This document shows, in pieces, positions 1 to 4,683 of a stretch of DNA of 64,000 nt. Made by a program: the position numbers and the translations under genes. A model generated the notes under the pieces. The model saw only the letters and a list, made by a program, of their open reading frames with translations. It did no database searches and was not told the DNA's origin. Position 1 is the first letter of the stretch, and every line of letters starts with the position of its first letter. The stretch comes from Planctomycetota bacterium (lineage in GTDB: Bacteria > Planctomycetota > UBA8108 > SXIK01), in the NCBI GenBank assembly GCA_965223265.1, contig OZ244999.1, forward strand, positions 9,115,497-9,179,496, read 5' to 3'.

Positions 1-1705
1 GAGAGCGGATGTAGTCCTCCCGTTCGAGCTGTCTTTGGTATCCGGACCCACCCAGTTCGTGGAAGCGTAGGTCGATCTTCCAAGTGTTGAAGTAGAGTCT
101 GCGGAATTTTGCAAAGTCTCCGGCCTGCAGATTCCTCGACCGGATGAGGCGCCTCAGTTTTCGGCGCCGGGTGAATGGTGATCGATGGACAAGATCACCG
201 AGATCCCTCGCTCTCGCAGCCGCTTCGACGCCTGCCGACTGCAATAGTTTGCCCCAACTGAAGAAGTCCTTCCAGTTCGTTTCCGACAGCACTGCTTGGT
301 CGAGAACCGACTTCTTCGCCACCCAATCGAGTGAGTCAGCAAGGCTTTGCTGTTGATTCTCGAGTCTCTCGAGCGTCTCCTCCCACAGATCTATGATCTC
401 GCGGTGTCGGATGCGGCCCTGCGGTCGACCATCGAAAAAAGTCTTGACGCGTCTTAGGTAGGAACGCTGGAGATTCATTGCTGTTGACGTCTGACCGCTC
501 CGCAGACGAACCTCTTTCCACGGTCCACCGCGCGCGATTTCACGGAACGCCATGACGGGATTCTTCAAGCGAAGCTCAGCAAACGTCTCTCCTGCTTCGA
601 TCATCTCCAGGAGGAGAGCAGTAACGCCGACTTTCAGTAGATTCGGGATGTCGGAGAGGTTGGAATCGCCGATCGTGATGGAGAGTTTCTTTTGCTCATC
701 GAAGAGCGCCGCCGGCGAGTAGAGGAACCCTTTCAGGTCGAACATGGTCTTCGACCGCCCGAACATGATGATCTTCGCTACGCTTGACGTCAGCCGGCTG
801 CGTTGCGACAGCTCAAAGGTTTCACTCTGAAAATCGAGACGTCCGGCTCCCGTATAGATCTGTCGACTGACGAGAAATGACGTCAAGTCCTTGACGAAAG
901 GCCCAAAAGCGAGGCGGCTCAAGAGTAACGAATAGAGCTGCACTGGCGGATAGACGATGACCAGGAAGAAGAGCACAGGAATGGCACGAATCGACTCAGC
1001 AGTTCGCGTGCGACCGTCGCGAACCCAAAGATAAATGTGTTCTGCGGCGCGCCGCAGCGGCGGTAGTAGGCGCCCGATCACCAGCGTGGCGGCGCCGAAT
1101 AGGAGAACGCAAAGCAGCGTGAAAAACGTCGGAAAGAGAAGCAAAAGGAAGATCGGGGCCGCGAGAATGAGGTACCGCAAGGCCGACCGCGGTGCTCGAT
1201 GAGAGACGAGGTAGTTTTCGTGGCAGCCGAATCCGGTCCCAAAGCGATCGACGTTGTTCTTACCGAAGAACAGACGCCCCGGCCAACCGGCTTTCGTCAG
1301 CGCTTCGGCGGACTTGCGGCTGACGTCATCGAGGATTGTGTCGAACGCTTTGGAGTAGCAAACGACGTCCCACGGTGTTCGACACTCGGGTGTTGCTACT
1401 TCGAAGATCGGTGTGTCTTCCTGGCGACGCAGAAAGATTTCCAGGTGCACCTGGCCGCCGTTCTCGAGGAAATACCCGCCCTTCAGACCACTTGCAGGTG
1501 CCGATTTGCGTCCCTCCAAAAGGCTGCTGTAGAGAACCTTCTCGAGCAGCTCGAAGGGCGCTTGCCTCTGCGGCGTCGCATTCGCGTCTAAATCGTCCGG
1601 GACCTCCGAGCCGACCGCGGGTTCGTAGATGACCGCGACCTCCGTCTCCAACCCGAAAATCCCCCTGCGTTCGTCGCTGGCGGGAAGGGGTTCGCGAGGG
1701 GCCAT
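1..1705 (-). CDS. PafA/Dop-family Pup ligase-like protein with hydrophobic (TM) insertion; 3' end runs off the window
   Basis: Manual translation from ATG at 1705: GIFGLETE...YFLENGGQVHLE...FEVATPEC...KNNVDRFGTGFGCHENYLV...FLVSRQIYTGAG...IGDSN...LDWVAKK...IDLRFHEL, colinear with PafA/Dop motifs. Not in the ORF track because there is no stop inside the window. Confidence 0.9.
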   Translation of the reverse strand, partial: MAPREPLPASDERRGIFGLETEVAVIYEPAVGSEVPDDLDANATPQRQAPFELLEKVLYSSLLEGRKSAPASGLKGGYFLENGGQVHLEIFLRRQEDTPIFEVATPECRTPWDVVCYSKAFDTILDDVSRKSAEALTKAGWPGRLFFGKNNVDRFGTGFGCHENYLVSHRAPRSALRYLILAAPIFLLLLFPTFFTLLCVLLFGAATLVIGRLLPPLRRAAEHIYLWVRDGRTRTAESIRAIPVLFFLVIVYPPVQLYSLLLSRLAFGPFVKDLTSFLVSRQIYTGAGRLDFQSETFELSQRSRLTSSVAKIIMFGRSKTMFDLKGFLYSPAALFDEQKKLSITIGDSNLSDIPNLLKVGVTALLLEMIEAGETFAELRLKNPVMAFREIARGGPWKEVRLRSGQTSTAMNLQRSYLRRVKTFFDGRPQGRIRHREIIDLWEETLERLENQQQSLADSLDWVAKKSVLDQAVLSETNWKDFFSWGKLLQSAGVEAAARARDLGDLVHRSPFTRRRKLRRLIRSRNLQAGDFAKFRRLYFNTWKIDLRFHELGGSGYQRQLEREDYIRS

Positions 1706-1928
1706 TGGGTGCGCGCGTTCGAAGATCGTCCTGTTAGGTTCAGGAGCTCAGTCAGGAAGGCAGTCGCCGGGCGTCGTGCCTTCGAGAGGAAGTCGGAGGC
1801 CGCGACAGGTCCCGGTGCTCACGCGCCATGGGCACACGGGTAACCGCGAGCGATTCGCCGCGCCAGTCACGGCGTTCTCTCTTCACATGGCGACCCGGCT
1901 CCTCTGAGGAGCGCGAACTTGGCCTCAA

Positions 1929-2117
1929 TCACTCAGCGCCGCGTCCGACGTCATAAGCGTAGACGTATGCAGCGGAGTGTTGGTCTGCGTCGGCGAGCAT
2001 GGCGCGAATCAGATCACGTCGGGTGCGAACGCCACGGTCGATGACCGAAGCGGGAATTCCGACACTTTCCGCGGACTCTGTGTCCGCAGAACGAACATCC
2101 TCGACTCTGCCTGCCAT
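1929..2117 (-). CDS. Putative Pup-like small modifier protein (62 aa, C-terminus AAYVYAYDVGRGAE)
   Basis: ATG at 2117; Pup-like size, polar N-terminus and terminal Glu; tail resembles Pup AEDFVRAYVQKGG(E/Q); same strand, directly upstream of the PafA-like gene. Confidence 0.6.
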   Translation of the reverse strand: MAGRVEDVRSADTESAESVGIPASVIDRGVRTRRDLIRAMLADADQHSAAYVYAYDVGRGAE

Positions 2118-2485: not shown

Positions 2486-3355
2486 ATGCGAGAACGTTGT
2501 AGTGCCGTTGCCCGCGAGCTCCAGGACACCATCACCGAGGAGCTCGAGCGCCTCGATGGGAGCCGTTTTGAGGAGGACCTGTGGGATCGAAGCGGCGGCG
2601 GCGGCGGACGTACCCGCGTGCTGACGGGCGGCGGACTCTTCGAGCGCGCAGGCGTCAATTACTCGTCGGTGCACGGCGAGCTTTCGGACGAGTTCGCCCC
2701 CCAACTGGCCGGCTCCGGGAAGGAGTTCTTCGCCACCGGGATCTCTCTCGTCCTCCATCCGTCGAACCCTCAAGTCCCCACGGTGCATGCGAACTTTCGA
2801 TACATCGAGAGAGGCGACGCATGGTGGTTTGGGGGCGGCGCTGATCTCACGCCGTACGTCTTTTACGAGGAGGACCCTTGCCATTTCCACTCGACGTGGA
2901 AACAGGTCTGCGACCGCCACGACCCCGAACATTACCCGAGATTCAAGAAGTGGTGCGACGAGTACTTCTTTTTGCCACATCGCGGTGAGTCGCGCGGCGT
3001 CGGTGGAATTTTTTTCGACAACCTGACTGGAGACCGCGATCGGCTGTTCGAATTCTGGAGCGATGCCGGGAGCGCGTTCTTGGACTCTTACGTGCCCATC
3101 GTCGAGCGCCGGCGGCATCTGGAACACAATGAGTCGCAGCGGCGATATCAACTGCTCCGACGTGGCCGCTACGTCGAGTTTAATCTCATGTACGACCGTG
3201 GGACGATTTTCGGCCTCAAAACGCGAGGTCGGATCGAATCGATCCTAATGTCTCTGCCGCCTCTCGTCGCGTGGGAGTACGACGTGAAGTGGCCACCGGC
3301 TAGCGCTGAGGCGGAGCTTGAAGCCGTGCTGCGTGAGCCCCGCGACTGGGTGTAG
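2486..3355 (+). CDS. hemF: Oxygen-dependent coproporphyrinogen III oxidase
   Basis: Motifs FERAGVNYS, PTVHANFRY, WWFGGGADLTP, RGVGGIFFD, RRGRYVEFNLMYDRGTIFGL; GGAGG RBS upstream. Confidence 0.97.
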   Translation: MRERCSAVARELQDTITEELERLDGSRFEEDLWDRSGGGGGRTRVLTGGGLFERAGVNYSSVHGELSDEFAPQLAGSGKEFFATGISLVLHPSNPQVPTVHANFRYIERGDAWWFGGGADLTPYVFYEEDPCHFHSTWKQVCDRHDPEHYPRFKKWCDEYFFLPHRGESRGVGGIFFDNLTGDRDRLFEFWSDAGSAFLDSYVPIVERRRHLEHNESQRRYQLLRRGRYVEFNLMYDRGTIFGLKTRGRIESILMSLPPLVAWEYDVKWPPASAEAELEAVLREPRDWV

Positions 3356-3720
3356 GCCGCCTGCACCCGCACCGTCCGGCAGCAGCCTCGAGTCTGGTCA
3401 TTGCGCGTCAAGCCCAAGCTCGGGTGCGATCTGCGGCGATCGGTGGGCGCGCGCAGCGGCGGACCTGGCACTTCCAGCGGGCCGGTCGGAAGTTTCGAAC
3501 AAGCACAGCAAAACAGTCCAAAAAGCCTTGGAATCCCGGTAAATTCGTCCGGCCAGGCTGGCACTCAGTCCGAACTCCTTCCGCGAGCGCCGGGGCGGCA
3601 CGCAGGATCAAGAGAGGCGAGATGTCTTGCCGACACTTGTTACGTTGGATCCTCCGGAGAACGGGCTGCCGCGCTGAAACCAGATCGAGCGCGGAATCAC
3701 CTCAGACCGAGACAAGACGA

Positions 3721-4683
3721 ATGCGTTACCTATCGGGAATTCAACCCTCCGGCACCTTACACCTGGGCAACTATTTTGGCGCCATGCGCCAGCACGTAGC
3801 CCGCCAAGATGAGAACGAGTGCTTCTACTTCATCGCCGACTATCATTCCTTGACGACGGTGCGCGAGCCGGACGTCTTGCGGCAAAACGTCACTGATGCC
3901 GTACTCGACTACCTTGCGGTTGGACTCGATCCCGACAAGTCGGTGCTGTTTCGCCAGTCCGACGTACCGCAAGTGGTTGAGCTCATGTGGGTCCTCTCGA
4001 CGCTGACGTCCATGGGGCTCTTGGAGCGATGCCACAGCTACAAGGATAAGATCGCCAAAGGCATCGAGCCGAGCCACGGGCTCTTCTCGTACCCTGTGTT
4101 GATGGCGGCCGATATTCTCCTCTACGACGCCGAGCGTGTTCCCGTCGGCAAAGACCAAGTGCAGCATCTTGAAGTGACACGCGACATCGCCCAGCGATTC
4201 AATCACCTCTACGGTGAGACATTGGTGGTCCCCGAGGCGGAGGTCGAGAAGGAGACGGCGGCCGTGCCGGGGGTCGACGGCCAGAAGATGTCGAAGAGTT
4301 ACGGCAACACGATCGAGATGTTCACCAGCGAAAAGAAGCTGAAGAAATCGATCATGGCGATCAAAACCGACTCGAAAGGCGTTGACGAACCCAAAGATCC
4401 TGATGAGAGCACGATTTGCCAACTCTATCGGCTTGTGGCAAAGGACGAGGAGATGGCGGCGATGGAGGCTCGTTTTCGCGAGGGTGGCTATGGCTACGGA
4501 GATGCAAAGAAGGCCTTGCTGGCAAAGACACTCGACTACTTCGCGGACTATCGCGCCTCCCGGGAGAAGCTCGCTGCCGACCCAAACGTTGTCGCGGAGG
4601 TTCTGCGCGGCGGCGCTGCGAAGGCATGCAAGATGGCGACGCAGACTCTTGACCGCGTCTACCGGGCCGTCGGGCTGCGGTGA
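3721..4683 (+). CDS. trpS: Tryptophanyl-tRNA synthetase
   Basis: Starts MRYLSGIQPSGTLHLGNY (HIGH-type motif), YPVLMAADIL, VPVGKDQVQH, KMSKS; start placed at ATG 3721. Confidence 0.97.
   Translation: MRYLSGIQPSGTLHLGNYFGAMRQHVARQDENECFYFIADYHSLTTVREPDVLRQNVTDAVLDYLAVGLDPDKSVLFRQSDVPQVVELMWVLSTLTSMGLLERCHSYKDKIAKGIEPSHGLFSYPVLMAADILLYDAERVPVGKDQVQHLEVTRDIAQRFNHLYGETLVVPEAEVEKETAAVPGVDGQKMSKSYGNTIEMFTSEKKLKKSIMAIKTDSKGVDEPKDPDESTICQLYRLVAKDEEMAAMEARFREGGYGYGDAKKALLAKTLDYFADYRASREKLAADPNVVAEVLRGGAAKACKMATQTLDRVYRAVGLR

Follow-up and report, generated by a model that had tools for sequence, protein, structure and literature searches.

The arrangement closest to the one described here was predicted in 2008 by Iyer, Burroughs and Aravind (Biol Direct 3:45; PMC2588565), who described, in Rhodopirellula and Plesiocystis, orthologues of Pup that are 50-90 aa long and end in G[EQ]. 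According to that account, the small Pup genes, which were unannotated in Rhodopirellula, always lie adjacent to a PafA gene and are unlinked to proteasome genes, the ligases carry four transmembrane (TM) segments inserted after core strand 4, and pupylation of membrane proteins was proposed (PMC2588565). The same paper predicted that Pup has a disordered N-terminus followed by two helices and then an extended tail (PMC2588565). Corynebacteria have no proteasome subunit genes, so that tagging there is not a proteasomal degron, and their Pup gene, whose product ends in Glu, is found immediately before the ligase gene; the Pup signature is stated in that source as GGQ/GGE (PMC3511204). A 2020 study used a single planctomycete Dop/PafA homologue, 29-31% identical to both enzymes, as an outgroup (PMC7947786). 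Our search of the literature found no bench test of planctomycete pupylation, and planctomycete Pup tags appeared in it only in the 2008 prediction and as a phylogenetic outgroup. Outside the Actinobacteria, a further Pup-like tag, UBact, was reportedly described by Lehmann and colleagues in 2017, ending in Glu or Gln and encoded beside PafA homologues, and its loci are said to include a proteasome, Mpa, and two ligase paralogues.

The window analyzed here is a stretch of 64,000 nucleotides from the 9.18-Mb genome of a Planctomycetota bacterium, and at its start lies a pair of minus-strand genes, a small open-reading frame followed by a PafA/Dop-family ligase. The features of the pair are the following.

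1929..2117, minus strand: tag gene, 62 aa plus TGA stop, ending GRGAE (translated frame, 53-member family, leave-one-out profile)
2022..2117, minus strand: residues 1-32 of the tag, an N-terminal part that is variable and predicted to be disordered (no conserved columns, block pLDDT 51-57)
1932..2021, minus strand: conserved C-terminal module of the tag, residues 33-62 (column counts and AF2 model)
1706..1928, minus strand: tag-ligase spacer, 223 bp (between tag stop and ligase start)
1..1705, minus strand: PafA/Dop-family carboxylate-amine ligase gene (Pfam Pup_ligase PF03136, E 2.2e-67; structure matches)
911..1189, minus strand: membrane insert of the ligase, residues about 173-265 (hydrophobic stretches, AF2 helices, no Dop/PafA counterpart)

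The tag frame runs from an ATG at window position 2117 through 62 codons to a TGA at 1929-1931, and remains open further upstream to an ATG at 2252, which gives 107 aa. The first-pass annotation had placed a 62-aa ORF 223 bp upstream of a PafA/Dop-like gene on the same strand, and this proved exact, with a translation (MAGRVEDV...YDVGRGAE) identical in every letter. We also agree that no strong Shine-Dalgarno sequence is present, as reading of the upstream sequence showed nothing AGGAGG-like before the ATG. The expectation that annotation would probably miss the gene was wrong, because the exact 62-aa protein is already present in both the NCBI and the ENA protein sets for this contig.

The missing ribosome-binding site, the many spurious frames that overlap in this region, and the absence of any Pfam or NCBIfam match to the single tag sequence would all fit an ORF that arose by chance in GC-rich intergenic DNA. 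No usable match to the tag came from the ESM Atlas, and a word-indexed search with three tags returned those three alone. A six-frame search of 60 relatives with the tag gave weak matches, the best at E 0.006 and 0.016, and these two reach the last residue of the query, end YVESYQVGRGGE and YVEKYRAGRGAE, and are each followed on the same strand, after 12 and 40 bp, by a homologous ligase gene; because of this position adjoining the ligase, both were accepted as real. A profile built from four tags was then run, with no word index, over 1.84 billion protein representatives. It gave 54 matches at E<=1e-3, and in 53 of these the match extends to the last residue of a small protein of 43-124 aa. 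The remaining one, P0051, was kept out of the 53-member alignment because it is long (629 aa) and is matched over five internal stretches (E 5.9e-4) instead of at a short protein's C-terminus. The family as used below is accordingly a set of 53 representative tags at 50% identity. Within the genome itself, 89 of the 200,210 stop-to-stop frames that are 25 aa or longer (0.044%) end G[AG]E, and a leave-one-out tag profile scored the window's frame at E 1.3e-11, the next best frame of the 9.18-Mb genome scoring 0.94. Together with the linkage to the ligase set out below, the family and these genome-wide controls refute a chance frame as far as sequence comparison goes, and we regard that origin as scarcely credible; by the same comparisons, the tag gene is real and conserved.

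Conservation in the family is concentrated toward the C-terminus, where Asp at position -20, Tyr at -12, Gly at -3 and Glu at -1 are invariant (53/53), while 50 of the 53 tags have Arg at -4 and 50 have Leu at -22. The tails end GAE in 41 members, GGE in 11 and GSE in one. No member ends in Gln, which supports the earlier suggestion that a tag with a GAE end would need no deamidation. In the AF2 model of the tag, helices span residues 33-46 and 48-54, residues 55-62 have no regular structure, and the mean pLDDT of 10-residue blocks is 76-85 over residues 31-60, with an N-terminus of low confidence. In length and predicted architecture the tag thus resembles Pup (62 aa, two helices, a tail, and a low-confidence N-terminus), as the model matches the disordered N-terminus, two helices, and tail given by Iyer et al. 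Glu62, at the end of a predicted extended tail of eight residues, is the presumed conjugating residue. The window's tag contains no lysine and eight arginines, and could therefore not itself be tagged or form chains; lysine-free tags make up only three of the 53 in the family.

Comparison of the family with the known tags by profile had been proposed as a check. None of the 53 tags matched Pfam Pup PF05639, TIGR03687 or UBact NF033388 at E<=1, while control actinobacterial Pups (L047, L048) were detected at 8.3e-20 and 6.8e-16 by the Pfam model and at 1.1e-18 and 5.3e-19 by TIGR03687. The comparison of the tag profile with an actinobacterial Pup profile was weak (7% probability, E 0.005, 24 columns), and yet the YV..Y motif of the tags aligned with FV..F of Pup in the expected register. 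With actinobacterial Pup and its enzymes PafA and Dop (complex 4bjr), the system shares a short, predicted disordered protein with a two-helix module and a tail ending in Glu, encoded beside an enzyme of the PafA/Dop fold. It differs in that the tag has no significant sequence match to Pup, that its tail has one additional residue and a GAE end in place of GG[EQ], and that a single membrane-anchored enzyme takes the place of the PafA/Dop pair, with no proteasome or Mpa/ARC found. Against the G[EQ] end that the 2008 paper gives for all Pups, the window's tag and 41 of the 53 members have Ala as the penultimate residue, with Gly at -3; the window's tag does not end G[EQ], although 11 members do end GE. 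We file the tag as Pup-like in its predicted working, but it matches no Pup sequence model and lacks the di-glycine of Pup proper.

To establish how regularly tag and ligase occur together, 401 sampled Planctomycetota genomes were scanned for the ligase at E<=1e-10, and it was found in 39, the window's own genome included. At all eight close ligase loci from public genomes (L032-L039, 44-51% ligase identity), a tag frame lies upstream on the same strand. The linkage count took 30 loci, 29 of them non-self Planctomycetota ligase loci. At 13 of these 29, a profile-detected tag lies directly upstream on the same strand, and a further 11 have a same-strand upstream frame whose last residue is Glu and which has Gly at -2 or -3, their tails being mostly xGGGE, plus PGGAE, PDGGE and ASDGE. 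A Glu-ending upstream frame is thus present at 24 of the 29; the other five have no such frame, among them L106, which starts at a contig edge. Upstream tags, with the ends PHGGE, PFGGE, HQSGE and HQCGE, were seen at no fewer than five more TM-bearing ligase loci, in a tally that covered G[EQ] ends and so left out the GAE tails of L120 and L122 (duplicates of L039 and L096). In the reverse direction, the tag profile matched nine of the 401 genomes at E<=0.01; all seven matches that reach the profile end adjoin a ligase from the ligase scan, and the other two are weak (E 0.002) and do not reach it. The pair occurs in roughly a tenth of the sampled Planctomycetota genomes. A conserved terminal G-x-E upstream of the ligases, which the first-pass annotation had suggested looking for, is therefore present, as G-[A/G/S]-E in 53 of 53 family members and, with Gly at -2 or -3, as an upstream Glu-ending frame at 24 of 29 loci. 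Family and linkage together support its reading of a lineage-specific, putatively Pup-like modifier paired with an adjacent TM-bearing ligase.

The tags with different tails are related to one another. In hhalign, the GRG[AG]E family and the PGGGE tags, whose neighboring ligases have about 30% identity, align as far as the last residue (94.5%, E 7.5e-8), so that the two groups are, by profile alignment, demonstrably homologous. The ligase tree comprised 50 rows, without L134 and L183 (envelope below 430 aa) and the duplicates L091 and L102, and with the tail label of L044 set by hand; TM segments were checked directly for the window's ligase and for the rows of the later locus scan. Of the 50 rows, 47 formed one clade (SH-aLRT 100). 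The window's ligase falls in a 10-row clade (SH-aLRT 100) whose tails are GAE in nine rows and GGE in one, and most tags of sister-clade ligases end GE. Because the GAE label requires at least four changes on the tree, Ala and Gly have been interchanged more than once at position -2. The tag-ligase pair itself has been kept together across a deep ligase clade. Among metagenome-assembled genomes (MAGs), some that are labelled as Synergistia or Vulcanimicrobiota also carry near-identical PGGGE tags with TM-bearing ligases, and one labelled as Acidobacteriota has a related pair (L040, L041, L042, L045 and L044); either these pairs have moved between phyla or the bins are mislabelled.

Adjacency and conservation are what these comparisons establish, and both would fit any obligate partner of the enzyme. 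The small protein might then bind the ligase homologue unconjugated, as a regulator, pseudo-substrate or assembly partner, the true substrate of the enzyme being another, and the lack of significant sequence similarity to Pup is in keeping with this. The pattern of constraint argues otherwise, as it is strongest at the extreme C-terminus (Glu at -1 and Gly at -3 in 53/53, Arg at -4 in 50/53), and the same terminal Glu recurs across tag subfamilies that are otherwise very different. Constraint of this kind is predicted for a reacting terminal residue and is not expected of a mere binding partner, and we consider an unconjugated partner unlikely.

The neighboring enzyme belongs to the PafA/Dop family of carboxylate-amine ligases by sequence match, fold and core motifs. 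Its 5′ 568 codons lie inside the window and the gene runs off the window start, the full-length protein having 634 aa. The GLETE (strand 1), TPEC and HENY motifs are invariant in all 13 aligned ligases. The AF2 model (pLDDT 87, pTM 0.87) matched the PafA-Pup complex 4bjr (E 1.3e-25) and Dop 4b0r (1.5e-25) in Foldseek with target-normalised TM-scores of 0.74-0.80, and glutamate-cysteine-ligase-like and glutamine-synthetase folds followed far behind. In the NCBIfam equivalog models, the ligase scored 183.5 bits against a cut-off of 551 for PafA and 166.5 against 492 for Dop, and because it is below both cut-offs it is an orthologue of neither. Since it is far below them and about equally like PafA and Dop, an activity as ligase and not as hydrolase is something we infer.

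The possibility that the enzyme is a Dop-like hydrolase only, with the small ORF as its substrate or a relic and no conjugation in this organism, draws on the solved structures, among which the best sequence match is to Dop (4b0r, E 1.6e-39) over PafA (4b0t, 7.4e-34). The NCBIfam scores slightly favor PafA, on the other hand, and the enzyme is the single Pup_ligase (PafA/Dop) homologue in the whole genome, so that nothing would make the conjugates for it to remove. A tag already ending in Glu needs no deamidase, and the pair has been kept across the deep ligase clade. With these points against it, a hydrolase acting alone appears extremely unlikely.

The ligase carries an insert of roughly 90 residues directly after the GCHENYL strand, with hydrophobic stretches at residues 173-217 and 239-263, modelled by AF2 as long helices at 173-213, 215-230 and 234-265. 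Across residues 176-265 it is without counterpart in Dop or PafA, as residues 102-175 of the ligase correspond to Dop 99-168 and residue 266 onward to Dop 165 onward. We considered whether the insert replaces the Dop-loop and rejected this: the insert follows the HENY strand (Dop 165-168) and the Dop-loop lies elsewhere, N-terminal of the catalytic Asp (PMC7947786). In the Rhodopirellula baltica and Plesiocystis pacifica system as described in 2008, the small Glu-ending ORF, the single PafA-family gene, the insert right after core strand 4, the lack of linkage to a proteasome and the predicted tagging at the membrane are all the same as here. A membrane-protein gene linked to the pair in that description was not recognised among the Pfam-matched neighbors at our locus. 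The Rhodopirellula tag enters this comparison through its published description; a third scan of genome contigs listed mainly actinobacterial loci, with no named Rhodopirellula record among those listed. The membrane-anchored Pup arrangement as such has therefore been in print since 2008, and we count the same prediction for Rhodopirellula and Plesiocystis in favor of the tag reading.

The genome (one contig, 91.65% complete by marker genes) was searched as a whole for the other parts of a Pup pathway. The proteasome/HslV family PF00227 had no match at E<=1 in its 9.18 Mb, and the same search was positive in 11 of 14 control genomes, E. coli included; the organism therefore seems to be without HslV and the 20S proteasome. 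For Mpa/ARC, the whole-genome search returned generic AAA matches alone, far below the cut-off. The best whole-genome match to the model of canonical Pup was at E 1.5, with none at the tag locus, and a whole-genome scan with the UBact model at E<=10 likewise gave no match at the tag locus. The UBact model (NF033388, ubiq_like_UBact) matches neither this locus nor any of the 53 family members, and in contrast to the UBact loci the proteasome, Mpa and a second ligase are missing here. Proteasome-less corynebacterial pupylation, as described in PMC3511204, has in common with this system a Glu-ending tag before the ligase and no proteasome genes; corynebacteria keep Dop, the ARC ATPase, a soluble PafA and a canonical GGE Pup, and none of these is present here.

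The neighborhood of the pair gave no further component. Housekeeping or unrelated genes, mostly variable, flank the window and six related loci. None of them is a proteasome or AAA gene, neither tailoring nor export genes are conserved beside the pair, and no conserved membrane-protein gene was recognised among the neighbors with a Pfam match. Divergently upstream of the tag gene lie two genes on the other strand, both assigned by Pfam.

2486-3355, plus strand: coproporphyrinogen III oxidase (hemF), divergent, upstream of the tag
3424-4683, plus strand: tryptophanyl-tRNA synthetase (trpS), beyond hemF

A divergent upstream hemF occurs in four genomes (the window's own, G000, and those of L034, L037 and L039), with trpS beyond it in the first three and the flank of L039 ending at hemF; this looks like synteny by descent and not an obvious functional link. 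An HD-domain gene lies 3′ of the ligase on the same strand in two genomes only (G000:C1:9114651-9115244, just beyond the start of the window, and L034 4446-5066 in the closest relative). In the spacer, a 13-nt stretch at window positions 1780-1792 (minus strand) is identical in the spacer of the closest relative (G001, L034 2404-2416) and absent from every other fetched locus, the rest of the spacer being poorly alignable; it is a candidate regulatory element ahead of the ligase start. A consensus scan of positions 1600-2600 found no promoter-like or terminator-like site on the minus strand. Given the 223-bp spacer and the lack of a visible ribosome-binding site, co-transcription of tag and ligase is not assured.

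Taken together, these results are probably best explained by a Pup-type tag that is conjugated by the adjacent membrane-anchored PafA/Dop-family ligase. Once expressed, the tag would have a disordered N-terminal half, and its two-helix module would dock on the ligase, so placed that the tail G-R-G-A-E brings the carboxylate of the Glu62 side chain into the active site. The helical insert after the fourth core strand would anchor the ligase to the membrane on its cytoplasmic side. With ATP it would form a Glu acyl-phosphate, which would then be joined to an amine; activation of the Glu and ligation of this kind are suggested by the invariant Glu, the near-invariant Gly-Arg-Gly, and the place of the tag beside an enzyme of the PafA/Dop fold. 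No Dop-type deamidation would be needed, since the tag is encoded with its Glu end and a single enzyme is present. Conjugation would, as in Pup, run through the gamma-carboxylate of the terminal Glu to lysines, and because the ligase is membrane-anchored, the most likely acceptors would be lysine side chains of membrane-associated proteins. As no proteasome and no Mpa/ARC were found in the genome, the mark would presumably be regulatory, or be read by something else, and would not be a proteasomal degron.

The same observations bear on the acceptor. The insert would set the active-site sheet beside the membrane, and neither a reader nor a remover of protein conjugates was found in the genome, so that one might picture the enzyme using a small amine as acceptor for the terminal Glu, be it an amino acid, a polyamine or a lipid head group, to give a modified peptide or lipopeptide, as peptide-modifying amidoligases do. 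We think this quite improbable, as PafA and Dop, the characterised enzymes closest to it, have protein lysines as their targets, the long, predicted disordered N-terminal part gives the tags a variable length (43-124 aa in total) as in protein tags, and no conserved tailoring or export genes adjoin the pair. The narrower idea that the acceptor is a membrane lipid with an amine group, for example phosphatidylethanolamine or an ornithine lipid, arises because the hydrophobic insert would set the active-site sheet of the ligase against the bilayer, and would yield a lipid-anchored protein tag. Its specific support consists of the membrane placement and the lack of a conjugate reader or eraser in the genome, nothing more, and we hold it to be very improbable; if true, such a tag would be a bacterial counterpart of Atg8 lipidation, carried out by an enzyme of the glutamine-synthetase fold. 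Conjugation to proteins at the membrane by the adjacent ligase is the reading that we prefer over both.

Other small ORFs beside Pup-ligase homologues were observed in the course of the locus comparison. One type, ending QEQGE or QQQGE, was seen in other Planctomycetota MAGs, labelled Thermoguttaceae, Planctomycetaceae, Pirellulales and Phycisphaeraceae, at the following positions.

L057, 2289-2483: small ORF of the QEQGE/QQQGE type
L060, 3487-3681: small ORF of the QEQGE/QQQGE type
L076, 3656-3940: small ORF of the QEQGE/QQQGE type
L063, 2244-2486: small ORF of the QEQGE/QQQGE type

These ORFs matched no Pup or UBact model, and since hhalign gave 0.1% against the GRGAE family, no relation to it is detectable; they may represent a second unmodelled tag type in the Planctomycetota. 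In MAGs labelled Myxococcota/Deltaproteobacteria (L134 2687-2980 and L183 2687-2941), a canonical-looking Pup ending FVKNYVQRGGE lies directly downstream of a soluble ligase homologue. In an Acidobacteriota MAG (L046 689-904), a Pup-like ORF lies 1.6 kb upstream of the ligase, with a sub-threshold match to Pfam Pup (E 0.0053).

What is new relative to the 2008 prediction is the tail typical of this clade, in which Ala replaces the Gly before the last residue, and how large the unmodelled family is. As the 53 tags are matched by no curated model, a family profile would correct many annotations that now read "hypothetical protein". Trypsin digestion of conjugates is predicted to leave a Gly-Ala-Glu remnant of +257.10 Da on lysines, as against +243.09 Da for Gly-Gly-Glu (by residue-mass arithmetic), and this distinct remnant makes a proteomic test straightforward. 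A two-gene, deamidase-free, membrane-anchored pair could also serve as an orthogonal proximity-labelling tool alongside the PafA/Pup methods. For the enzyme family, the conserved tail suggests that this ligase class accepts Ala where Pup has an apparently obligatory Gly.
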